Shown here: one piece after another, positions 10,339-52,155 of the stretch | Position numbering within the stretch: position 1 is the stretch's first letter | Layout of the letters: every line of letters begins with the position of its first letter | Assembly: GCF_006345805.1 (NCBI RefSeq) | Contig: NW_021832232.1 | Span: 434,001-498,000 of the forward strand | Direction of reading: 5' to 3' | Length of the DNA stretch: 64,000 bases | From: Octopus sinensis | Taxonomy: Eukaryota | Notes under the pieces: model-generated | The model's input: the letters and a program-made list of their open reading frames with translations, nothing else | Databases searched by the model: none | What the model was told of the DNA's origin: nothing | Position numbers and translations under genes: made by a program

Positions 10339-10730
10339 GGAAATTCGTGATTCCGTCGGCCTTTGCCGTTATCTCTGATTGACCGACTCGATTTTTTGCG
10401 GAAACCCGACGCCTTGAGAGCTTTTCGAACAGATTATAATGGCTAAACGAGAATGGTATGACTAATTTAATTTTCCCAGACCGCCTTTACGCCCACTGCT
10501 TTGTAAAGGCAGCCCACCACTTAGTTTTTGGAAAATTAGATTATTCTACGGAGTGAAACGTTCGGTTGGCAAAATTGCACGATTGGTTTAAACAATTCGT
10601 CGAATGCGTTGTCCAAATGGCTCACTTGCCTTCTGGCTCACTGGCGTGCGGTTCCTCTATGTTAGGGTTGGGGTTAGTACTGAAGTACTCTCTTATTACA
10701 CCGTTTCGGTCAGAACTTGAAATTCGACAA
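10339..10730 (-). mobile_element. Right arm of a non-autonomous Merlin (IS1016/ISXO2-like) element with a telomere-like insert
   Basis: Reverse complement of the transposase C-terminus at 52040-52120 (RRQVSHLDNAFDEL); probable terminus GGAAATTCGTGATTCCG at 10339; TTAGGGTTGGGGTTAG at about 10662-10677. Confidence 0.7.
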
Positions 10731-10769: not shown

Positions 10770-11496
10770 GAATAAAATTAAGAGTTCAATTTTCATAGAA
10801 ATTAATCAATTCTTCTTCGTATAGTGTCGTTGCTTAATGGAATAGTCTTCATAATATTGAAGAATCTTTTTGTAAGATATCGTTATATAAATTAAAACAA
10901 GGCGGATGACATTTTCTGCAATCGAATGGCATTACCTATAATTAAAAAATTATGCAACCAGTTTTTGCGATTATCTCTGAACTTTATATGAATAAGATAA
11001 TCCAGAGACATTTTGAGATATATTTTATTAAAGATTGACGGTAAGGTGTTTTTATTTTCAAAATTCTTTTTAATCTAGAAAAAAGTCTGGCTTTTTTCAA
11101 TTGAATTATGATGTTTTGCTTTAAATGTTCAATCAAACGAGACGGTTTCATTGCCTCATTCAAGAAAATTGTACCACATTGAAGACAAAGTGGTTTATTA
11201 GGATCTTGAGGATCTTTAATAAATCCAAGAGAAATATATTCATCTTTATAATTCTGACTTTTTTTTGAACCGACCCATAAAGATAACTAGAAATCACGCT
11301 TAGAAATTTAATTAAATATAATAAAAAATATCATATTTTAATAAATATTATTAGACTCGATTATATATCTTTATTTTTCAAAGATTATCGACTTCTACAT
11401 AAGATTTTAATTTTTAAATATTAGCAATCAGCCATCGCCCCCCTGGCAAAAAAAAATCGCCCCTAGGGGGCGAATCGCCACCGTTGAGAACCACTG
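10770..11496 (-). mobile_element. 5' part of a hAT (Buster/Charlie-type) transposon, truncated
   Basis: TIR CAGTGGTTCTCAAC ends at 11496; GGCGA(T/A) subterminal repeats; frameshifted NYKDEYISLGFIKDPQDPNKPLCLQCGTIFLNEAMKPSRLIEHL (ZBED5/Buster-type N-terminus). Confidence 0.85.
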
Positions 11497-11625
11497 CTCT
11501 AAGTACTCTCTTATTACACCGTTTCGGACAGAACTTGAAATTCGACACTCGCTTTATCGTGGTTCCTCTTTGTTAGGGTTGGGGTTAGGGTTGGGGTTAG
11601 GAAAATTAGATTAGATTATTTTACT
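11497..11625 (-). repeat. One unit of the Merlin-derived telomere-like minisatellite
   Basis: Near-identical reverse complement of the units at 51609-51980; contains (TTAGGGTTGGGG)2TTAGG. Confidence 0.85.
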
Positions 11626-24342: not shown

Positions 24343-26125
24343 CACTGTCGGCTACATTTTCAAAGTAACTACATATTCCAAAAAAACATTGTTCAAAAAA
24401 AACGTGACCAAAATTCGATTAGTAATTAATATGCTTCCCTTTCGTCTTATATACTTCCAGAACTCGTTTGTGGAAGCTTAGAACATATTTTCTTATTAGT
24501 TCCGGGGGGAGGTTGTTCCAGATTTTCAAAACTTCTTGCTTTAAAGTTTCCTTATCAAGCCTTCCCATATTGCGTAACTGGAACTTTATATAGGCCCACA
24601 CATGCTCGATTGGATTGAGATCTGGACTTTGTGCAGGCCAATTAATTGTTTTGATTTTTTCTTCTTCAAGAAATTTCCTTGTGACTCGAGCTGTATGCTT
24701 TGGGTCGTTGTCGTGCATAAACTCAAAGTCAGTTAAACTCATTTCTCCGGCGGATTGGTTTAAATTTTGTGCTAAAATTTGCACATAATGCGCAGCCGTC
24801 ATAATTCCGTCAATAAAAACGAGCCGGCCTACTCCATTGGACGAAATACAGCCCCAAGCTAGAACACTTCCTCCTCCAAATTTAACTGTAGGTAAAAATT
24901 TTACCGAACATATTGTCAACATTTGACGGAACTAGAAGCGGATATATCTCTTAGATTCAAAGATTTGTTTGATTTGGAATTTGAAGCATGGATGATTGAT
25001 CCGTTTTCATATGTGCCAGAAGACATGAACGAAACAATCCAAGAAGAGATAATTGAATTGAAATATAATGAAGAATATATTCACAGATTTCAACAGGATG
25101 GTATCTCTAAATTTTGGCAATCAAAAGATTTACAAATGAAATTTCCAAATTTATGGAAGGAAATGAGTAATGTACTATTGACATTCCCTACCACTTATTT
25201 AGTTGAAAGTGGATTTAGTTTTGTCAATCATAATACACAATGTGAAAGAAATAGACTGGAAGTGTGTTATAGAGGCGATATACGCCTAAAGTTGAGCGGA
25301 ATTAAACCCGACATTGAATATTCAGCGAGTAAACATCAATATCAAGGGTTTCACTAATAATTTTTAATAAAAATTCAATTTTTTACATTTGATTTATTAT
25401 TTTATATTTTGATTTTTGAGTTATATACAAAAAACAACCAATTAAGGGACAATGCCCAAAAATTTTTAAATTGTATGTGGACAAGGGGGCGATAAAATTT
25501 CAAAGAGGGCGATAAAATTTCAAAGGGGGCGATAAGATATCTAAGGGGGCGATGAACAAAAAAAGGTTGAGAATGCCTGGGTAAAATGTTGGCCGAATGA
25601 TATCTTTCACCGCGAAAATATCGAACATTATTTCTTTTATTTGCTGAAAATAACTCAAATTTTGTTTCATCGGAGAAAATAATTTTGCCTAGATCTTCAG
25701 ACGAGATCCCTAAATAATTTTCAGCAAATAATTTTCTCTTTAACACGTTTACTGGTCGTAATAACGGTTTTTTACACGGTTTTCGATTTTCTAGTCGAAA
25801 AGAATATAAAGCATTCCTTATTGTTGATCGAGAAAGTCGTAAATTGTGCTCAGATTCAATGTAATTTGCAATTTCTTGTAAAGTGGAAAAAAGATTTTGA
25901 TCATATTTCGTCAATATTGCGTTTTTAATCGCCAGAGTAAGTTTTTCTGGACGACCAGAACCAACGGGACGTTCAAAAGGCAGTCCGTTTTTTATTTTCG
26001 CGCTGACTTGCTGCACAAAAGATTTTGAAACATTGAATTCTTTGGCGATTGTTCTTTGTGAGCATCCTCGCCTTAAGTGTTCCGCTATTGAATATTTTTT
26101 GATCAGGAAACTTTGAGATGACATC
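24343..26125 (-). mobile_element. Tc1-like DD34E transposase split by a hAT fragment
   Basis: HTH region, IIFSDETKF, HSANILP|TVKFGGGSVLAWG, FMHDNDPKH, WPAQSPDLNPIEHVW; the frame is continuous once 24898-25587 is removed. Confidence 0.9.
24906..25579 (+). mobile_element. 3' part of a hAT (Buster-type) transposon
   Basis: hAT dimerisation motif LLTFPTTYLVESGFS..RNRLEV..RGDIRLKLS; GGGGCGAT subterminal repeats; TIR GTTGAGAATGCCTG resembles the terminus at 11483-11496. Confidence 0.9.
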
Positions 26126-26149
26126 GTGCTGTATTTTGAAATTAATTTT

Positions 26150-26311
26150 TCTCTCGGTCCAAAAACTGAAAAGTTCCTTCGCAAGCTCGGAGCCAAAATC
26201 TCAATGCGCACCCATGATCCTCGGGAGGCGAACTGGCTAATGCAACGGCTCTCGATTGCCATTATCCGGGGAAACAGTTTGGCAATCCGCCAGGCTACAT
26301 ATCCACCATAA
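26150..26311 (+). mobile_element. CRE-like retrotransposon extreme C-terminal fragment
   Basis: FLRKLGAKISMRTHDPREANWLMQRLSIAIIRGNSLAI (QR.SIA..RGN motif). Confidence 0.65.
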
Positions 26312-26514
26312 ACATACACCCCTCGACATAAATATTGGTGAATCTTCAACTTACTTCATTCATACAAAGAATGATTTAATTTTTTCTTCAGATATATTTT
26401 AAAATCTGATAAAATTGATAAAAATTAATTTAATTATTTAAATTTTGAAATTTTGTCTAAGAAATTTGGAAAAAACAACGACTTTCATTGGCATAAAATT
26501 TGGTTATTGTGAGA

Positions 26515-29636: not shown

Positions 29637-30480
29637 TTAGCTTAATCTTCTCTTTTTGGGCCCATAATCCAGTGACCGTATGGGTGTGTTCTCGTCGAAG
29701 CACACTCCACATTCTGAGGCCGCCCTTGGTTGACATTCCGTTTCAGCTTTCTCCTCACTAGGTATCGATATACCATGCCTCTCTTCAGCCTGCATGCTCT
29801 CCAATGTCTTCCTCAGAACCACTGTCTGAATATATGCTCTCACTCTTTCTTCCAGCTTGCGGACATCAAGATGACCCTTGAAAAATCTTGAGACAATTCC
29901 ATCCCAGGTCATTACAACAGGGATTACTTTAACTTTTGCGTGATGAATTGCTTCAAGTTCATTTGCCAATAAGTCATATTTGTGGAACTTCTCAACTTCG
30001 ACCTGCTTGAGGCAATTTTGCGAAGTAATCCCAACTTCGATAAAAGTAATTGTATTCCTCATTTTGTCATGAACAAATATATCGGGTTTGTTATTCGCCA
30101 CAGCTGTATCCGTACTAATCGTAGTATCCACACGAATCTCCACAAATTCATTGCTAACAACAGATTGAACTGAGTGTGTCTTTAGTTTCTTAGTTTTCCT
30201 TATTCCATATTGACGACAGAGATGTAAGTGAATACATCTGACTATTCGTTATGCCGTCTAAGATATGAGCTATTCAGCATTCTCCCGCACCTAGTTGCAA
30301 GGTGATCAACTGTTTTTCTTGCCGAGTTACAATGCGTGCACTTATTTTCTTCATTATCAAAAAACATGTTGCGGTCCTGAAGTAGACACAGTCTCCCTTC
30401 AGTCATGGGGGAATGATTTCCATTAACCAACCATCCAGAAGATTCACAAACATTTACTTCCGTGTCTTTCAGACATTGAA
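29637..30480 (-). mobile_element. Non-LTR retrotransposon 3' fragment: CCHC knuckle + PD-(D/E)xK endonuclease
   Basis: CTHC..TVDHLATRC..YLRRHNE; NNKPDIFVHDK..IEVGIT..EVEKFHKY..IPVVMTWDG. Confidence 0.85.
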
Positions 30481-40100: not shown

Positions 40101-43100
40101 GCTGAACTTAATAATCTAAAGATTTATTATTGTGGGAAGCAAATAATTAGTAGCTGCGATGGAAAGAAACTCAATGACACACATTTTATAATTTCATCGT
40201 CTTCAAATGCGATAGGTAAAACAGCAGATATGGCAAAAATGGTCCATAATTCATGGAATCCGTCTGCCATAGACCCAAACGTGCATCTAGACTTGTATTT
40301 TGGAGAGAAAAATAAACCTATAATAAAAATAATCAAATTTGATATGACGACACCATCAAGAGTAATAGTATCTACAAAGGATAACAAGGATTCAAAATAC
40401 ACAATATATAAAGTCAGTAATTTATTGTCATAACAAAATAGAACATAATATCACTAAAAATGAATTTTGAAATAGAAATGAACAATAATTTTTCAGCAAG
40501 AAATATAAAATTTGAATTTTTTGGAATAGAAAATAATTTAACAAGAAATGAAATATATATTAATCAACTAGAAGTAATAGGATGTGGAGGAAAATTAATA
40601 GGTAAATAATAAGAACAAATAAAATTAGAACAAAATAAAACAAGAGAAGAAATTAACAACACACCAACAGGTAAGAAAAGATTGAATAAAAATTAAAAAG
40701 GAAAATGTGAAAATACAACGACATTATTAGAATTGATGGGAAAATATCCAATGAACTTAGGGGAGCAAAAAAGCTATGTGGTAATACGAAATGAGAGCTT
40801 AAAAATAATAATATCAAACAAAGAAAAATGGGTGGTAGAAAGAATTTATGGAACAGTAAATGAAACAGAAAAAATAATGAAAGTAATTGTAGAAACAGAT
40901 GACATTGAAAAAGTAAAGAAAAATATTTTAAAAATTAGAGAAAAGAATTTACAAAAAATTTTGACATGCAAATAAAAAGCAAAACAAATATAATAGAGCT
41001 GACAATATTAAATACTGATACAAACCAATTGCTAAAAAACAAAATAGAAAAATTGAATATAATCGGATGTATAAGTAGGATAAAATATAAAATTAAAAAT
41101 AGGAGAATTCAATACAGTAAAACAAACGACAAAATATAGTACTGCATATACATCAGAATATAAAATACCAATCTATACAAATAAACCTAAAAACGAATCG
41201 ACAATTGAAAAAATGCCAACAATAACAAGTATAAAGATTTTTTTATTAATCACAAATAGGCAAAATAACTACTGAAAAACCAACCACTGAGCATCTTACA
41301 ACAGAGAAGACTACTGAAATTAATGTCCCAATATATACCACTGAATCCACAACTCAAAAGATGCCAACAATTACAAGTATGTTAATTTTGTACTATTTTT
41401 ATTAGAAGAAGAAATCACTAGCAAAAAACCAACCCCTGAGCATACAACACACCAAAAAACAACAGAAATCAATGTTCCAATTTATACAACTGCACCCACA
41501 ACTCAATTGATGCCGACATTACAAGTTTTTAATAATTAGATTATTTATCGAAAAGAAGTCATCACAACAGAACAACCTACCACGGAACACCCAACGACTG
41601 AAAAAACAACTCAAATTAATGTCCCAATTTACACGACCGAACCGACAACTCAAAAAATGCCAACAATAACAGTTTAAAGATTTTTTTATTAATCACAAAT
41701 AGGCAAAATAACTACTGAAAAACCAACCACTGAGCATCTTACAACAGAGAAGACTACTGAAATTAATGTCCCAATATACCACTGAATCCACAACTCAAAA
41801 GATGCCAACAATTACAAGTATGTTAATTTTGTACTATTTTTATTAGAAGAAATCACTAGCAAAAAACCAACCCCTGAGCATACAACACACCAAAAAACAA
41901 CAGAAATCAATGTTCCAATTTATACAACTGCACCCACAACTCAATTGATGCCGACAATTACAAGTTTTTAATAATTAGATTATTTATCGAAAAGAAGTCA
42001 TCACAACAGAACAACCTACCATGGAACACCCAACGACTGAAAAAACAACTCAAATTAATGTCCCAATTTACACGACCGAACCGACAACTCAAAAAATGCC
42101 AACAATAACAAGTTTAAAGATTTTTTTATTAATCACAAATAGGCAAAATAACTACTGAAAAACCAACCACTGAGCATCTTACAACAGAGAAGACTACTGA
42201 AATTAATGTCCCAATATATACCACTGAATCCACAACTCAAAAGATGCCAACAATTACAAGTATGTTAATTTTGTACTATTTTTATTAGAAGAAATCACTA
42301 GCAAAAAACCAACCCCTGAGCATACAACACACCAAAAAACAACAGAAATCAATGTTCCAATTTATACAACTGCACCCACAACTCAATTGATGCCGACAAT
42401 TACAAGTTTTTAATAATTAGATTATTTATCGAAAAGAAGTCATCACAACAGAACAACCTACCATGGAACACCCAACGACTGAAAAAACAACTCAAATTAA
42501 TGTCCCAATTTACACGACCGAACCGACAACTCAAAAAATGCCAACAATAACAAGTATAAAGATTTTTTATTAATCACAAATAGGCAAAATAACTACTGAA
42601 AAACCAACCACTGAGCATCTTACAACAGAGAAGACTACTGAAATTAATGTCCCAATATATACCACTGAATCCACAACTCAAAAGATGCCAACAATTACAA
42701 GTATGTTAATTTTGTACTATTTTTATTAGAAGAAATCACTAGCAAAAAACCAACCCCTGAGCATACAACACACCAAAAAACAACAGAAATCAATGTTCCA
42801 ATTTATACAACTGCACCCACAACTCAATTGATGCCGACAATTACAAGTTTTTAATAATTAGATTATTTATCGAAAAGAAGTCATCACAACAGAACAACCT
42901 ACCACGGAACACCCAACGACTGAAAAAACAACTCAAATTAATGTCCCAATTTACACGACCGAACCGACAACTCAAAAAATGCCAACAATAACAAGTTTAA
43001 AGATTTTTTTATTAATCACAAATAGGCAAAATAACTACTGAAAAACCAACCACTGAGCATCTTACAACAGAGAAGACTACTGAAATTAATGTCCCAATAT

Positions 43101-46100
43101 ATACCACTGAATCCACAACTCAAAAGATGCCAACAATTACAAGTATGTTAATTTTGTACTATTTTTATTAGAAGAAATCACTAGCAAAAAACCAACCCCT
43201 GAGCATACAACACACCAAAAAACAACAGAAATCAATGTTCCAATTTATACAACTGCACCCACAACTCAATTGATGCCGACAATTACAAGTTTTTAATAAT
43301 TAGATTATTTATCGAAAAGAAGTCATCACAACAGAACAACCTACCACGGAACACCCAACGACTGAAAAAACAACTCAAATTAATGTCCCAATTTACACGA
43401 CCGAACCGACAACTCAAAAAATGCCAACAATAACAAGTTTAAAGATTTTTTTATTAATCACAAATAGGCAAAATAACTACTGAAAAACCAACCACTGAGC
43501 ATCTTACAACAGAGAAGACTACTGAAATTAATGTCCCAATATATACCACTGAATCCACAACTCAAAAGATGCCAACAATTACAAGTATGTTAATTTTGTA
43601 CTATTTTTATTAGAAGAAATCACTAGCAAAAAACCAACCCCTGAGCATACAACACACCAAAAACAACAGAAATCAATGTTCCAATTTATACAACTGCACC
43701 CACAACTCAATTGATGCCGACAATTACAAGTTTTTAATAATTAGATTATTTATCGAAAAGAAGTCATCACAACAGAACAACCTACCACGGAACACCCAAC
43801 GACTGAAAAAACAACTCAAATTAATGTCCCAATTTACACGACCGAACCGACAACTCAAAAAATGCCAACAATAACAAGTTTAAAGATTTTTTTATTAATC
43901 ACAAATAGGCAAAAAACTACTGAAAAACCAACCACTGAGCATCTTACAACAGAGAAGACTACTGAAATTAATGTCCCAATATATACCACTGAATCCACAA
44001 CTCAAAAGATGCCAACAATTACAAGTATGTTAATTTTGTACTATTTTTATTAGAAGAAATCACTAGCAAAAAACCAACCCCTGAGCATACACACACCAAA
44101 AAACAACAGAAATCAATGTTCCAATTTATACAACTGCACCCACAACTCATTGATGCCGACAATTACAAGTTTTTAATAATTAGATTATTTATCGAAAAGA
44201 AGTCATCACAACAGAACACCTACCACGGAACACCCAACGACTGAAAAAACAACTCAAATTAATGTCCCAATTTACACACGACCGAACCGACAACTCAAAA
44301 AATGCCAACAATAACAAGTTTAAAGATTTTTTTATTAATCACAAATAGGCAAAATAACTACTGAAAAACCAACCACTGAGCATCTTACAACAGAGAAGAC
44401 TACTGAAATTAATGTCCCAATATATACCACTGAATCCACAACTCAAAAGATGCCAACAATTACAAGTATGTTAATTTTGTACTATTTTTATTAGAAGAAA
44501 TCACTAGCAAAAAACAACCCCTGAGCATACAACACACCAAAAAACAACAGAAATCAATGTTCCAATTTATACAACTGCACCCACAACTCAATTGATGCCG
44601 ACAATTACAAGTTTTTAATAATTAGATTATTTATCGAAAAGAAGTCATCACAACAGAACAACCTACCACGGAACACCCAACGACTGAAAAAACAACTCAA
44701 ATTAATGTCCCAATTTACACGACCGAACCGACAACTCAAAAAATGCCAACAATAACAAGTTTAAAGATTTTTTTATTAATCACAAATAGGCAAAATAACT
44801 ACTGAAAAACCAACCACTGAGCATCTTACAACAGAGAAGACTACTGAAATTAATGTCCCAATATATACCACTGAATCCACAACTCAAAAGATGCCAACAA
44901 TTACAAGTATGTTAATTTTGTACTATTTTTATTAGAAGAATCACTAGCAAAAAACCAACCCCTGAGCATACAACACACCAAAAAACAACAGAAATCAATG
45001 TTCCAATTTATACAACTGCACCCACAACTCAATTGATGCCGACAATTACAAGTTTTTAATAATTAGATTATTTATCGAAAAGAAGTCATCACAACAGAAC
45101 AACCTACCACGGAACACCCAACGACTGAAAAAAACAACTCAAATTAATGTCCCAATTTACACGACCGAACCGACAACTCAAAAAATGCCAACAATAACAA
45201 GTTTAAAGATTTTTTTATTAATCACAAATAGGCAAAATAACTACTGAAAAACCAACCACTGAGCATCTTACAACAGAGAAGACTACTGAAATTAATGTCC
45301 CAATATATACCACTGAATCCACAACTCAAAAGATGCCAACAATTACAAGTATGTTAATTTTGTACTATTTTTATTAGAAGAAATCACTAGCAAAAAACCA
45401 ACCCCTGAGCATACAACACACCAAAAAACAACAGAAATCAATGTTCCAATTTATACAACTGCACCCACAACTCAATTGATGCCGACAATTACAAGTTTTT
45501 AATAATTAGATTATTTATCGAAAAGAAGTCATCACAACAGAACAACCTACCACGGAACACCCAACGACTGAAAAAACAACTCAAATTAATGTCCCAATTT
45601 ACACGACCGAACCGACAACTCAAAAAATGCCAACAATAACAGTTTAAAGATTTTTTTATTAATCACAAATAGGCAAAATAACTACTGAAAAACCAACCAC
45701 TGAGCATCTTACAACAGAGAAGACTACTGAAATTAATGTCCCAATATATACCACTGAATCCACAACTCAAAAGATGCCAACAATTACAAGTATGTTAATT
45801 TTGTACTATTTTTATTAGAAGAAATCACTAGCAAAAAACCACCCCTGAGCATACAACACACCAAAAAACAACAGAAATCAATGTTCCAATTATACAACTG
45901 CACCCACAACTCAATTGATGCCGACAATTACAGTTTTTAATAATTAGATTATTTATCGAAAAGAAGTCATCACAACAGAACAACCTACCACGGAACACCC
46001 AACGACTGAAAAAACAACTCAAATTAATGTCCCAATTTACACGACCGAACCGACAACTCAAAAAATGCCAACAATAACAAGTTTAAAGATTTTTTTATTA

Positions 46101-48658
46101 ATCACAATAGGCAAAATAACTACTGAAAAACCAACCACTGAGCATCTTACAACAGAGAAGACTACTGAAATTAATGTCCCAATATATACCACTGAATCCA
46201 CAACTCAAAAGATGCCAACAATTACAAGTATGTTAATTTTGTACTATTTTTATTAGAAGAAATCACTAGCAAAAAACCAACCCCTGAGCATACAACACAC
46301 CAAAAAACAACAGAAATCAATGTTCCAATTTATACAACTGCACCCACAACTCAATTGATGCCGACAATTACAATTTTTAATAATTAGATTATTTATCGAA
46401 AAGAAGTCATCACAACAGAACAACCTACCACGGAACACCCAACGACTGAAAAAACAACTCAAATTAATGTCCCAATTTACACGACCGAACCGACAACTCA
46501 AAAAATGCCAACAATAACAAGTTTAAAGATTTTTTTATTAATCACAATTAGGCAAAATAACTACTGAAAAACCAACCACTGAGCATTTTACAACAGTAAA
46601 GATTACTGAAACTAATAGTCCCGTTTTCTCTTCTTTATCTTCAACCGTTAAGACATCTCCTTTTCCCAGTTTTCTTTCTGTATGTATTTTTTAGAATTTT
46701 GTCCTTCTAATTTCTCCTCTATTCCTAAATCTTTAATTGAAGCTCTTCCTTCCTCCTCCTCATTAGATCATCTTATTGTTAATATTTTTTCTGAATCTGG
46801 TTATTGGTCTCCTTCTGATTCTTTGTCTCAATACATTACTTTCCGTTTTAAAATGTTCAATCCTAAGCTTGTTTCTCTTAATATTCATCTTTCTGGAGCT
46901 GATTCTATTCGTATTCTTTCTGGTAATTATTCTGATAATTTGATATTCCATTCGGTTTATTTTTGTATTTTTATTTTAGTCTCACAATGTTGATTTTTCT
47001 TCTCATAAATTGTTTGTTAATTTTCTTTCTCCTTATACTCTTACTGCTCAGTATTTATCTCTCCAGTTTTTGTGCTCTTCTTCTAATAATTATTCTTGCC
47101 AGAATCTTAAAGTTTTGTTTGTTGACATTGTCGCTTGCTCGGATGAAGGTTTCCCTTTAATTCTTTTTTTAGATATCATCATTTCAAAAGTTTCAACTTT
47201 TTGTATTGTTCAAGTTTTTATTTTATTATAGCAACCACCACTAAGAAACCAGTTAACGTTGGAGTTCCTTGTAAATTCCCTCCTAATGGTTAATTCGTTT
47301 TTTAACGTTTTAAGAATGTTCTAATCAAGTCTTTAATATTGCCGGTCCCGAGAATTTGCACAATGTCAAAATTACTGCATCAAGTCATCTGAACGGAACT
47401 GACCCACGTTTTATATTTTCAAATGAAAATGTATTTTTATTAAAAATATATATTCAGGAATGGATTCCCATTCCGTCTGACAATAAACCCTTTATAAAAC
47501 TTGAATTTCCGTTTTATTTAAAGACTATTGTTAGCGATTTTGAACTTACAATGCCAAATCTTATTATGGTCAATATCGAAATTAAACTTTTCTATCTTGG
47601 AAATGAAATTTTTTTTGTATCTTTAGAAAAATAATTTATCATAGACTAAATTGGTTTCATTAAGTGGTCTAATTAAAATGGACTTTATAGAAAGGTTCAA
47701 TTCTACGTATTTGGTTGACACAATCTTGATTTCTTTTGATAGCCCAGATATATCTGCATACAAATTTATTGTCAATGGGTGTTTCAAAAATAGAACTAAA
47801 TGTTATTTATTTATTCATTACTTTTTAGTTGAAACTCCAACGACTATTAAATATTCTGAATGTTTAAGTTTTACTTGTTTACTTTTAGATTGCAAGCCCC
47901 TTTCACTTCTTACTCCAGAAAATTCGGATCATTTCTACCTTGAGTCATCTGAAGGATCTCCACTAGATCTTCTTAATGATGATACTTGGACCGCTAAAAA
48001 TGACAACTCCTACCTTACCATCAACTTAAAAAACAATTTACAGATTGTTGCTGTTTCTCTCAAGACTAACAATCTGGCTCTTTCTACTATTAAAGCAATA
48101 CTCGAAGGAAACGAGGGAATTAAGCACGTTCATGTTAGGCTATATACGAAATAATATTTATAGACACTCATTCCTAAGTTTCTGCAGGATTCTTCTTTAC
48201 TTTTTATGAAACCAATTTTGGCTAGAAAAATAACATTGATTTTTAAAAAAGACGAAAATCATTTGGACGGTCTAATTGAAATTAGAAATTTGAATGTTGA
48301 AATTTGTACATCTGATGGTTGTTTATGTTTATGATTTGTAGATGAAAAATGTAGTTTGAAAACAAAAACTGAAGAATTGAAAAACGATGAATGTATTTCT
48401 TTAAATAATGTTACACATTCTTATTGTCACGGAAATTGTGATTCCGGGACTAATTTAGTTTTTCGGGTATATATTCACAAGTTAAAGTTTTATTAGAATA
48501 TGACTGTACATGCTATTAATAAATGTTATTGTTGCAGTGGAATAGTAGATAAAACTAATCCATTTATTCCGGTTGAAATGAAATGCAGAAACAGTATCAA
48601 TTCAATAAAAATACCAAAATATGCAGCATGTTATTGTAGATCGTGTGGAATTCATTAA
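34154..48658 (+). CDS. Large secreted SCO-spondin/hemolectin/gel-forming-mucin-like protein: signal peptide, EMI/EGF-like, 3 vWD-C8-TIL blocks, LDLa repeats, FA58C-like domains, PTS repeat, C-terminal cystine knot
   Basis: HYRTFDG..GLCGLFDG, NYLTFD..GMCGTFD, GDSHFVTFDG..GLCGDFDNN; TIL CPGNMEYTEC; LDLa CDNKIDCLDGSDEKNC, CDGHDDCGDGSDE; terminal YCHGNCDSG..CYCCSG..CYCRSCG*; dozens of tiny introns. Confidence 0.85.
41229..46620 (+). repeat. 442-bp higher-order tandem repeat, 12 full units plus a partial; each unit is three 117-nt Thr/Pro-rich exons plus introns of 31, 29 and 31 nt
   Basis: Unit marker aggcaaaa recurs at about 41258, 41701, 42141, 42582 ... 46550; exons encode variants of KITTEKPTTEHLTTEKTTEINVPIYTTESTTQKMPTIT. 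Confidence 0.95.
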
Positions 48659-50499
48659 ACTCTAAAATTAAATTTATGTTGTCAATTAAACTAAAATTTG
48701 CTGTAATAACCAAATTAAAGTTTATTAATTTTTTATATTTAAAATTTATTAATAGCATCAATTAGTCAAAAGTGAATGAGTGATGATTGACCCTTAGCAA
48801 AATCTAATAAAAATATTTTAATCTCCAAGATTAATTTTTGCAAAGTTCGTATAGTTTAACGTTGATTTGTAATCAATATACAGTACTAATATTAAGGACT
48901 AAGTGTGTCTTAGCTTGTGTCTTACCTCCAAAAGACGAGTTATGGTTTGGCAGTTTTTAATTAAGTGACCGTTTTTGGTTGTGAATATTTTTCTTGGTTT
49001 TTAATAATTTCTGAATTTATGAGTGGGATAGTAATGATCGATTTACCTATTTATATTGTTTATAATTAATGTTGAGCACATTTTAAATCCCAATAATTTG
49101 AAATTTAAATACCACATTCATTAGAGTTTCTAAAAATATAAAAATCCCAAGTCGTTTTGAAAAAATGGAAATTTCAGAAAGAAATAATTTTTTACTTACA
49201 CAGAACCCGATTTACAATCCATGTTGCCGGGATAAATTAGTTTTTATACCATGATATATGTTTTTCATAAACTATCTTAATTAAAATTAAGTATTTTTAA
49301 TAAATCTGATATGTTTTGGATTCTTAATATATTTGTCTATAAATAAAGATCAATAAATAAAGATTAACTTGAAAATTTTTAGTTTTATTATTTTTAAAAG
49401 TGTTGGTATGAGATTCAATCAATTTTGTCGTCATTTGCCAGTCAGTGAAAATGCATAACGCTGAGTTGATTAAGATTTATTCATATGTAAATTATCGCGA
49501 ATTTTTTTAATGAAATCTCCATGGGTGTCTTTAATTGTTAAATTTATTTTATTTAGTACCAGGAAAAATTTCTATAAAGAAATTCAAATAGTACGCCAGA
49601 CTGAAACTGGAATAGTGACTCATCTATTTTTTTCTAACTTTTTATAGTTTCACCAGAAAGAAGAACGAATCAAGAAATTATGGAGTATCCTTTAATTATT
49701 GTATTTGATTATTTTAGAACGACATCAGAGAATTTAAAAATATATTTAAGAAATTTATTTCCAGATTATGAGTTGGAAAATGTGGAATACATATAATAGA
49801 CCCGAATTAATAATTACTACATTGTTGATTGATCTCGAATTTATAAACGACTTTGAATATTCTGAATTTAAGTTATGATAGAAAATCCAAATAAAATAAT
49901 ATTGGATTGGATTTATATTCATAACCTCATGATATTGTTGATAGTTTAGTGAGCCGACGACATGCTTTTTGTTCATCTTGGAGTATTTTGTTCATTTTAA
50001 CCAAAATTCAGAATTCTTAAAATTATTTTAGTGGGAAAGTTTTAAGGACCTCATCGTGTGAGTCGGAGACATTGTAATTGTTTATTTTAACAAAAATGCA
50101 GAAAATAATTTTTTTGATTTTTTAGCGGGAAGGTTTAAAGGACTTCATAATCATGTGAGTCGAGGACATGCGTGTTGCCCATTTTATCCAAAATCTAGAG
50201 AATATTTTTTTTAATTTTTGGCGGGAAGGTTTTAAGGACCTTATGATTGAGGATATTCTTGATATGTTTGTTTTTTGGATGAAAGATTTTTGGAAAACCT
50301 CATCATTTTGGGCTTGTTCCCCATTATTGGCGAATTCTGAGGGAGAAGGATTTTTACAATTTATCTTTACTTTGCCAAATTGAAGTTGGTGCATACACAC
50401 AGACAGGCAGACACACACACCATACAATTTCGAAATATTAATTTATGTAAACATTGACTTTTCTATAGTACACAAATCCAGATATTAGTTAATTAAACT

Positions 50500-50959: not shown

Positions 50960-51440
50960 TAAATTTTGAGTAATATTGTCATATGACAATGTTTCTATAA
51001 ATTTCTAGTCATTCCTTTTTATACAACGATTTAAATGAATGCACAATCCCTTGATCAATTGATTGAATCTTAGATGTTGTCTTTGGAAAAAAAAATACAA
51101 ATCGATATTACTAAATTCTCCATCAAAATAGTGGACTGCGCATTATCTAGAAGAAGAAAAATCTTTCTATTTTCAACACTCGTTTTGGAATTTAACCGTT
51201 CAACACAGTTTTTAAAAATTAAAATGGTCATCCGGGATTATTCTTTTTAAAATCAACAACTTCCAGTTTTTGTTGAATTTCGATAAGTTATTTTTTTCTT
51301 CAATAAAAACAAAAAATTATTTTTGAATTTATCTAAAGAAAATCTTTCCTTGTTTTCTTTCGGTTTCTGTTTTTTTGATCAATAAACGACATTCCTTCCT
51401 TCCACCTAAAGAAAAATGGGTTCTTTTCTATTTCATGAAT
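50960..51440 (-). mobile_element. pogo/Tigger-type DDE transposase remnant
   Basis: IFLLLDNAQS..TTSKIQSIDQGIVHSFKSLYKK on the minus strand; frameshifted. Confidence 0.65.
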
Positions 51441-52125
51441 CACGAAAATAGGTACTAAATTAACTAATGAATTGAAGGACTACGAACTCCCTCGCTCTGA
51501 GATGGAGTCCGTAGCCTTCCTTCAGGAGGTTGGAATCATTCCAACCGAAAAGAAATGCGCCAAAAGACATCTGATGACCCTAAAGCGAGATGGTACAACT
51601 TGGGTGTGCGATAAAAGCGAGTGTCGAATTTCAAATTCTGTCCGAAACGGTGTAATAAGAGAGTACTTTAGAGTACTAACCCTAACCCCAACCCTAACCC
51701 CAACCCTAACCCCACCCTAACCTAACAAAGAGGAACCGCGATAAAAGCGAGTGTCGAATTTCAAGTTCTGTCGAAACGGTGTAATAAGAGAGTACTTTAG
51801 AGTACTTTAGAGTACCAACCCTAACCCTAAACCCCAACCCTAACCCTAACAAAGAGGAACCGCGATAAAAGCGAGTGTCGAATTTCAAGTTCTGTCCGAA
51901 ACGGTGTAATAAGAGAGTACTTAGAGTACTTTAGAGTACCAACCCTAAACCCCAACCCTAACCCTAACAAAGAGGAACCTCACGCCACTATATGGGTGAA
52001 TACTTTGCAGGTATTAAATATTTAGATTTAATTTGTAGAATTTTTATGGAGAAGGCAAGTAAGCCATTTGGACAACGCATTCGACGAATTGTTAGACGCA
52101 ATCGTGCAATTTTGCCAACTTTGAA
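51440..52125 (+). mobile_element. Internally deleted Merlin (IS1016/ISXO2-like) transposon
   Basis: N-terminal zinc ribbon ESVAFLQEVGIIPTEKKCAKRHLM..WVCDKSECRISNSVRNG; C-terminus QRGTSRHYMGEYFA|28-nt intron|EFLWRRQVSHLDNAFDELLDAI; DDE core absent. Confidence 0.75.
51609..51980 (+). repeat. Three ~125-bp tandem units containing CCCTAA/CCCCAA telomere-like tracts
   Basis: Unit: cgataaaagcgagtgtcgaatttcaagttctgtccgaaacggt-gtaataagagagtactttagagtac-(ccctaa/ccccaa)n-caaagaggaacc. Confidence 0.95.
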
Positions 52126-52155
52126 AATAAAAAGTTTATAAGCTCAGATCTTTAC

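Follow-up and report, generated by a model that had tools for sequence, protein, structure and literature searches.

A core-deleted Merlin transposon carrying a telomere-like filler tract on a contig of probable dicyemid origin in an octopus assembly

Introduction

A transposase reading frame that breaks off, passes into telomere-like hexamers and then resumes raises the question of where the hexamers came from and whether they serve any purpose. Such a frame lies within the stretch analysed here, a 64-kb piece (C8703:434001-498000, hereafter the window) of a 552-kb contig in a 2.7-Gb assembly filed under the name of an octopus. An initial annotation, made from the letters, had read it as a Merlin transposon whose catalytic core was replaced by alternating TTAGGG/TTGGGG repeats, possibly at a break healed by telomerase, and had proposed that the product was amplified and now seeds interstitial telomere-like tracts. 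We therefore asked what the element is, which part of the junction is foreign to it, how often the junction occurs, what else in the assembly carries the same hexamers and which organism the contig belongs to.

Results

Judged by its sequence characters, the window element is a member of the Merlin superfamily, as had been proposed. Merlin elements have been described as having a PF12762-type DDE transposase, TIRs of 24-462 bp that begin with 5'-GG, and TSDs of 8-9 bp (PMC8101967), and full-length relatives in the assembly have all three. When positions 51440-52140 were searched as DNA, with 40 of 322 candidates scored, the family was matched 58 times, on 33 small contigs and on none of chromosome size, and 113 relatives of the transposase were found, nearly all of them with PF12762. 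In the full-length copy L006 the central exon matches PF12762 (DDE_Tnp_IS1595) with an E value of 1.7e-7 and 31.8 bits (cut-off 27), and the DDE motifs stand at 1953 (VDES), 2133 (HSDKW) and 2302 (TVER). TIRs of ~37-56 bp starting with GG are present at both ends of L002, L006 and L020. An 8-bp TSD matches at 7 of 8 positions in L006 and in L002, and that of L020 falls within a homopolymer, with 7 positions visible. The same insertion is repeated across several contigs (L004-L006; L003/L020).

GG-starting TIRs, the 8-bp TSD and PF12762 are thus what the full-length relatives share with the Merlin superfamily (IS1016/IS1595-related), in which families with internal tandem repeats have already been described (PMC8101967). 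Unlike the superfamily, the family found here has a transposase split by several introns: the gene (L006:1461-2537) contains about six or seven GT-AG introns of 27-34 nt, a size that matches the miniature introns of the organism and so suggests long residence or intron gain. Intron 1 of L006 is 28 nt long (1681-1708) and begins GTGTAATAAGAGAGTACTTTA, and its removal joins SVRNG to TWLEG. On a profile built from 61 Merlin-type transposases (289 positions), full-length L006 covers positions 7-286 in intron-separated pieces.

The window copy also differs from the superfamily in that it is without the catalytic core, the ATG and the right TIR (Table 1). Its transposase frame stops at SVRNG (51469-51651) and restarts at QRGTSRH (51968), and on the same profile it retains 7-68 and 260-287, with a weak match to 248-261 (iE 1.6). 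By reference to L006, the D, D and E residues all lie within the 687 bp that are missing, so the deletion of the core, as first read, holds. About 148 bp upstream, including the ATG, are deleted as well (147-149 bp by comparison). The right TIR is absent from the window and from 10 kb on either side, and TIR matches number one in the window and none in L134/L135. The junction lies in a repeat unit of 124-130 bp that is present three times, each consisting of 42 bp of N-terminal coding sequence, the junction and 13-15 bp of C-terminal sequence, which agrees with the triplication and the variable tract length noticed at first reading; one contig built from short reads agrees with 51902-51968 except for an additional T. 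No intact protein is encoded at the element, and it has no predicted function.

Table 1. Parts of the Merlin copy and of its scattered fragments in the window (window coordinates)
Feature	Position	Strand	Basis or remark
Left TIR, starting with GG	51419..51471	+	L002, L006 and L020 carry this TIR at each end
Remnant of transposase exon 1 (…SVRN-G)	51472..51649	+	97-98% to L002/L003/L006; profile 7-68
5' part of the native 28-nt intron 1 ('gtaataagag' and first hairpin arm)	51650..51670	+	Comparison with L006
Locally templated 7-bp insert; completes the tandem copy of AGAGTACTTT and makes the hairpin	51671..51677	+	
Filler tract 1, foreign, (AACCCT AACCCC)n; its final AC also belongs to the element	51678..51726	+	G4 motif on the minus strand; stands for L006 1702-2388 (687 bp)
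Tandem unit 2	51738..51861	+	Restart at 2-bp GC microhomology; three AGAGTAC copies; tract 51817-51850
Tandem unit 3	51862..51968	+	Tract 51941-51968
C-terminal transposase remnant (QRGTSRH…)	51967..52119	+	96-98% to full-length copies; profile 260-287; 28-nt intron at 52011-52038; element truncated past 52119
TIR-less fragment: tract, tandem-type junction and N-terminal piece	11497..11601	-	92-94% to units 1-3
Fragment lacking TIRs: N-terminal piece, tract of 17 bp, C-terminal part with an internal deletion, 3' UTR	10538..10729	-	

Junction pieces recur on the minus strand at 10.54-10.73 and 11.50-11.60 kb, close to where they had been placed before. The second of these is cut at 11496 by what we take to be a hAT-like end. 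A shared sequence of ~17 bp flanks the two scrambled pieces (10525-10545 and 11602-11622), as if they had been circularly permuted or had come from serial template switches.

Reading across the junction, 21 nt of intron 1 are followed by GAGTACT, then by the tract, and the element is rejoined at ACAAAGAGG. Since the stretch GTGTAATAAGAGAGTACTTTA (51650-51670) is the 5' part of the native intron 1 and is present in the full-length copies, most of what had been called filler belongs to the element itself: 'gtaataagag agtact' is its own intron 1, and the telomere-like tract is foreign. The hairpin described beside the tract does fold (-3.7 kcal/mol, z -2.6), but one of its arms is native and the other exists because the palindrome-containing 10-mer AGAGTACTTT was duplicated in tandem. 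The sole foreign DNA is (AACCCT AACCCC)n, which measures 49, 34 and 28 bp in units 1-3 with the shared AC included, ~31 bp at 11.6 kb, ~17 bp at 10.7 kb and 33 bp in L002. It is flanked by 2-nt overlaps, CT on one side and AC on the other, and the tandem unit restarts at a GC common to the C-terminal and the N-terminal piece. In the intact element, AACCCT and AACCCC are absent from both flanks. The tract is beyond chance, with four matches to the 16-mer AACCCTAACCCCAACC at no more than 1 mismatch against 0 in 100 of 100 shuffles, and all four G4 motifs of the 64-kb window lie inside these tracts.

Helentrons and Helitrons end in subterminal inverted repeats and a 3' hairpin, and a hairpin that adjoins a microsatellite-like tract speaks for the alternative of a Helentron-type element inserted in the Merlin together with its microsatellite. 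However, one hairpin arm is native intron, the foreign part comes to about 40 bp and has no element ends, and hairpin plus tract occur nowhere outside this Merlin junction (6 matches). What survives of the idea, and of the check set beforehand whether the filler exists outside Merlin, is that the hexamers by themselves do lie inside independent mobile families, the miniature elements described below, which goes part of the way to what the initial annotation had itself named as refuting its reading. We give a Helentron-type insertion next to no probability.

An exact census of the junction across the assembly returned six left and five right junctions, all on C8703 and C2502, the right-junction count missing unit 1 through a 1-nt difference. 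The copy on C2502, L002, has two TIRs, the same junction once and a TSD of 8 bp; the flanks of the window copy are different ones. Six junctions on only two contigs point to one repair event with little spread, and the genome has not been seeded with interstitial tracts as was suggested. Similarly, the supposed amplification comes down to three tandem units, but at one site only. In run X1 the contigs over the junctions have a depth of 26-53, as against 290 for the shared N-terminal and 527 for the shared C-terminal part, a hint and nothing stronger that the junctions are real and rare: those contigs fall short of the 31-letter rule for bridging, depth does not measure copy number, and the assembly may have been made from X1 itself. 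At the tracts X1 lists neither joints nor loose ends, with 51600-51729 and 51813-51856, and one joint and one loose end there, left out of the listing, and contigs cannot show ends; runs X2 and X3 gave only scattered pieces over the stretch and were not counted as evidence. The tract-bearing derivative L002 also has another Merlin, of a different kind and with TIRs of ~37 bp, inserted in its C-terminal part (L002:~617-1458).

The look of the window is unlike that of the assembly's large chromosomes. Simple microsatellites number 0 per 10 kb in the window, 0.03 in the loci selected by Merlin or MITE matches and 6.4 in large-contig loci. A strawberry-notch-like gene has 24 introns of 23-32 nt (median 28, by a heuristic, homology-free splice model), the presence of an innexin marks the contig as animal, and the HSP90 of the contig, filed under the octopus name, is at most 57% identical to others, molluscan ones included, among the best 120 of 7878 listed. 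In dicyemids, which are parasites of cephalopod kidneys, the median intron length is 27 bp (PMC6543705) and the genome is one of 67.5 Mb that is 49% repetitive (PMC6736024). We infer that C8703 is likely dicyemid co-biont DNA inside the host assembly. Dozens of small contigs of up to 1.3 Mb (examples are C8703, C2502, C1794, C8702, C12459-C12471 and C12597-C12605) seem to belong to a co-biont animal with tiny introns, probably a dicyemid; their genes are filed under the host's name, which makes them a source of mis-annotation and also a usable parasite genome resource.

The window has other features of note. A 441-bp unit repeated 12.3 times at 98% (41194-46622), with three ~148-bp exon-plus-intron modules per unit, encodes a Thr/Pro/Glu/Lys-rich, mucin-like repeat. 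Another repeat, at 49900-50370, has a very high summed X1 contig depth and many internal joints. On the minus strand, 25402-26355 and 29637-30248 hold what is left of a Tc1-like transposase (PF01498) and an ORF that matches no Pfam family and presumably resembles the endonuclease end of a non-LTR retrotransposon.

The hexamers of the filler occur in two families of miniature elements. Family A (~630-920 bp, TGTCAC…GTGACA; e.g. L133:1946-2578) was reached through a match to CCCCAACCCTAACCCCAA on C8223, and 82 of the 84 matches to its tract pattern lie on 14 small contigs. The 16-mer AACCCTAACCCCAACC is present without mismatch in each of the 14 young copies, and one copy matches the filler perfectly over 27 nt; older subfamilies exist as well, and 18 older loci have other hexamers and a filler match of just 10-14 nt. 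Family B (~1.1 kb, with TGTCACAG ends; e.g. L163:2190-3352) alternates AACCCT with AACGCC or AACCCC; the tract is present in 4 of 12 loci, with a perfect filler match of 23 nt in one and of 13 in the others. First-look candidates numbered 550 for family A and 710 for family B, 40 of each having been scored. One family A copy shares a contig with L002, and neither family has left a piece that could be found in the window, within 10 kb of its two ends, at the ends of C8703 or in L002 itself. The hexamer vocabulary of the tracts varies by MITE subfamily, and a copy on C3547 has a tract of ~330 bp.

Both families have TGTCA ends, and a 5-bp direct repeat accompanies 5 of 6 two-ended loci in family A and 6 of 7 in family B (L173 and L174 share flanks). 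An autonomous Ginger2/Tdd element would have a transposase related to Gypsy integrases. In their ends the two families are like Ginger2/Tdd elements such as TDD-4/5, with TGTNR termini and 5-bp target duplications, whereas animal Ginger2 elements are described with 4-bp TSDs; the likeness is one of ends and TSDs only, and the consulted parts of that description do not mention internal telomere-like tracts (PMC2836005). Titles and abstracts of the literature searched held nothing specific on telomere-like tracts in MITEs.

Another suggestion was that the 12-mer is the real telomere repeat of the organism, and this was not borne out. No array of the form (TTAGGGTTGGGG)n was found in the assembly, and none of the 82 co-biont contig ends examined has a telomere-like terminal array. 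A run of three perfect 12-mers occurs three times in 2.7 Gb, one of them being the present tract and the other two lying in a degenerate TTAGGG array of host type; of 19 matches to CCCCAACCCTAACCCCAA, 16 are on large or host-type contigs, two on C8703 and one in the MITE on C8223. An 18-mer telomere pattern gave 216 matches, and the 30 loci inspected among the 100 matches listed were host TTAGGG-degenerate with no Merlin match, the remaining 116 being covered through sub-patterns only. The TTAGGG-ended small contigs examined (C7099, C10227, C10460 and C12761) match host repeats and not co-biont ones, as do C10327, C12113 and C8325. The TERT families PF12009 and PF21399 score above cut-off on the large contig C28 only, in a search of low sensitivity for a divergent tiny-exon gene. 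No dicyemid telomere data were found in the titles or abstracts searched. A host-type dispersed repeat family (L035, L053, L058, L059 and L071) also holds CCCTAACCCCAACCCTAA, so telomere-like tracts sit within dispersed repeats on both the host and the co-biont side.

Discussion

We are left with the source of roughly 33 nt of alternating hexamers at a deletion junction. The reading put forward first was that telomerase had healed a double-strand break within the Merlin by adding repeats to it. On this view the alternation would reflect a variable or 12-nt telomere, or else a T>C change followed by slippage of the 12-mer. The polarity of the tract fits, with the G-rich strand extending the right fragment's 3' end …TTTGT and GT in register, and a deletion with a small addition is the commonest pattern among mammalian ITS, for which the chance of at least 2 nt in register is at most 6.25% (PMC2246262). 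The present tract shares with mammalian short ITS at double-strand breaks (PMC2246262) its place at the junction of a deletion and the 2 nt that are in register; unlike them, it alternates strictly between TTAGGG and TTGGGG and has a non-telomeric source at hand. But 2 nt in a single event weigh little, and template switching would be expected to leave such a microhomology too. The strict alternation does not appear to be the product of a simple TTAGGG template, and an unusual template or later mutation would be needed. AACCCC makes up 3-8% of hexamers in host-type TTAGGG arrays versus about 40-50% in the filler. The absence of a 12-mer array from the assembly and of telomeric co-biont ends counts against telomerase as well, and a ready-made dimer is present in the MITEs. 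Taken together, we consider a telomerase-healed break unlikely.

Slippage has evidently been at work, since the 10-mer is present in two or three copies, the tracts range over 17-49 bp and a 124-bp unit is in tandem, and the tract might on that account have grown in place from a seed of a few nucleotides left by end joining, with no specific donor. Yet the flanks of the intact element hold no AACCCT or AACCCC, and at least 12 untemplated bases would therefore have had to coincide with a repeat of which the MITEs of this genome hold many copies. Growth in place seems to us decidedly improbable.

On balance we favour, with some reserve, a deletion with template-switch capture of filler during gap repair, followed by one move or copy and then by local tandem duplication. 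As comparison with the full-length copies shows, a two-TIR Merlin copy lost L006 1702-2388 together with its D, D and E residues. Repair added 7 nt copied from just upstream, and ~33 nt of AACCCT/AACCCC were joined through the CT and AC microhomologies visible at the junction, presumably by a template switch to a donor that was likely one of the organism's TGT…ACA miniature transposons. The derivative, which is found at two sites, may have got to the second by transposition in trans or by conversion. In C8703 the unit was duplicated in tandem at the GC microhomology, with slippage of the tract and the 10-mer, and the ATG and right end were lost, leaving the scrambled pieces at 10.5-11.6 kb. 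One may speculate that a G4-stalled fork triggered the tandem duplication.

Template-switch capture with ~2-bp microhomology has been documented for TIR elements (PMC8277862, PMC3814204), and since abundant templates already carry the TTAGGG-TTGGGG dimer, capture with a little slippage is the most economical account. Internally deleted non-autonomous elements with filler DNA, formed by abortive gap repair or by Pack-TIR gap-filling/FoSTeST (PMC3814204, PMC8277862), are similar to the derivative: they too combine a deletion inside the element with short microhomologies, the scar of a small insertion and sequence captured from elsewhere. The difference is that the piece captured here is only a telomere-like tract, ~33 nt long and without unique donor sequence. 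Some observations run against capture from a MITE. No donor spans the ~33-nt ancestral filler (family A usually matches 16 nt, and only 1 of 12 family B loci matches more than 13 nt), so that slippage after capture must be assumed, and the tract brought along no unique MITE sequence by which a donor could be proven. Gap-filling also favours nearby donors, yet no MITE A or B was seen near the element, and the 2 nt of in-register GT would fit telomerase equally well.

Whatever its source, the tract could in principle act as a site of breakage, telomere addition or elimination borne on a mobile element. The contig looks dicyemid, chromatin elimination and circle formation have been reported in dicyemid somatic cells (PMC6543705, citing Noto 2003 and Awata 2006), and every G4 motif of the window is in these tracts. 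However, the six junctions are confined to two contigs, the copies are decaying, TIR-less or truncated, tract length and sequence vary freely, and both contigs continue through the sites. Nothing in the present data supports such a role, and we hold it to be exceedingly unlikely. Very unlikely, too, is the broader conjecture that the dicyemid telomere is a variable hexamer (TTAGGG/TTGGGG/TAAAGG) borne by the Ginger-like MITEs and the Merlin derivative, where it would mark sites of somatic break, telomere gain or circularisation in chromatin elimination. The defective, low-copy Merlin is likely a case of ordinary transposon decay and not a telomere or a DNA-elimination signal.

On the favoured reading, the locus is a well-resolved small example of a non-autonomous DNA transposon forming, capturing filler and decaying. 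It also carries a warning, that telomere-like filler need not mean telomerase where its hexamers are also present in other mobile elements. Of more use than the feature itself is its setting: dozens of contigs of a tiny-intron animal within a host assembly, and on them telomere-like tracts in two MITE families or more. If the MITE tracts were indeed dicyemid telomere or elimination marks, they would provide a sequence handle on dicyemid chromatin elimination.
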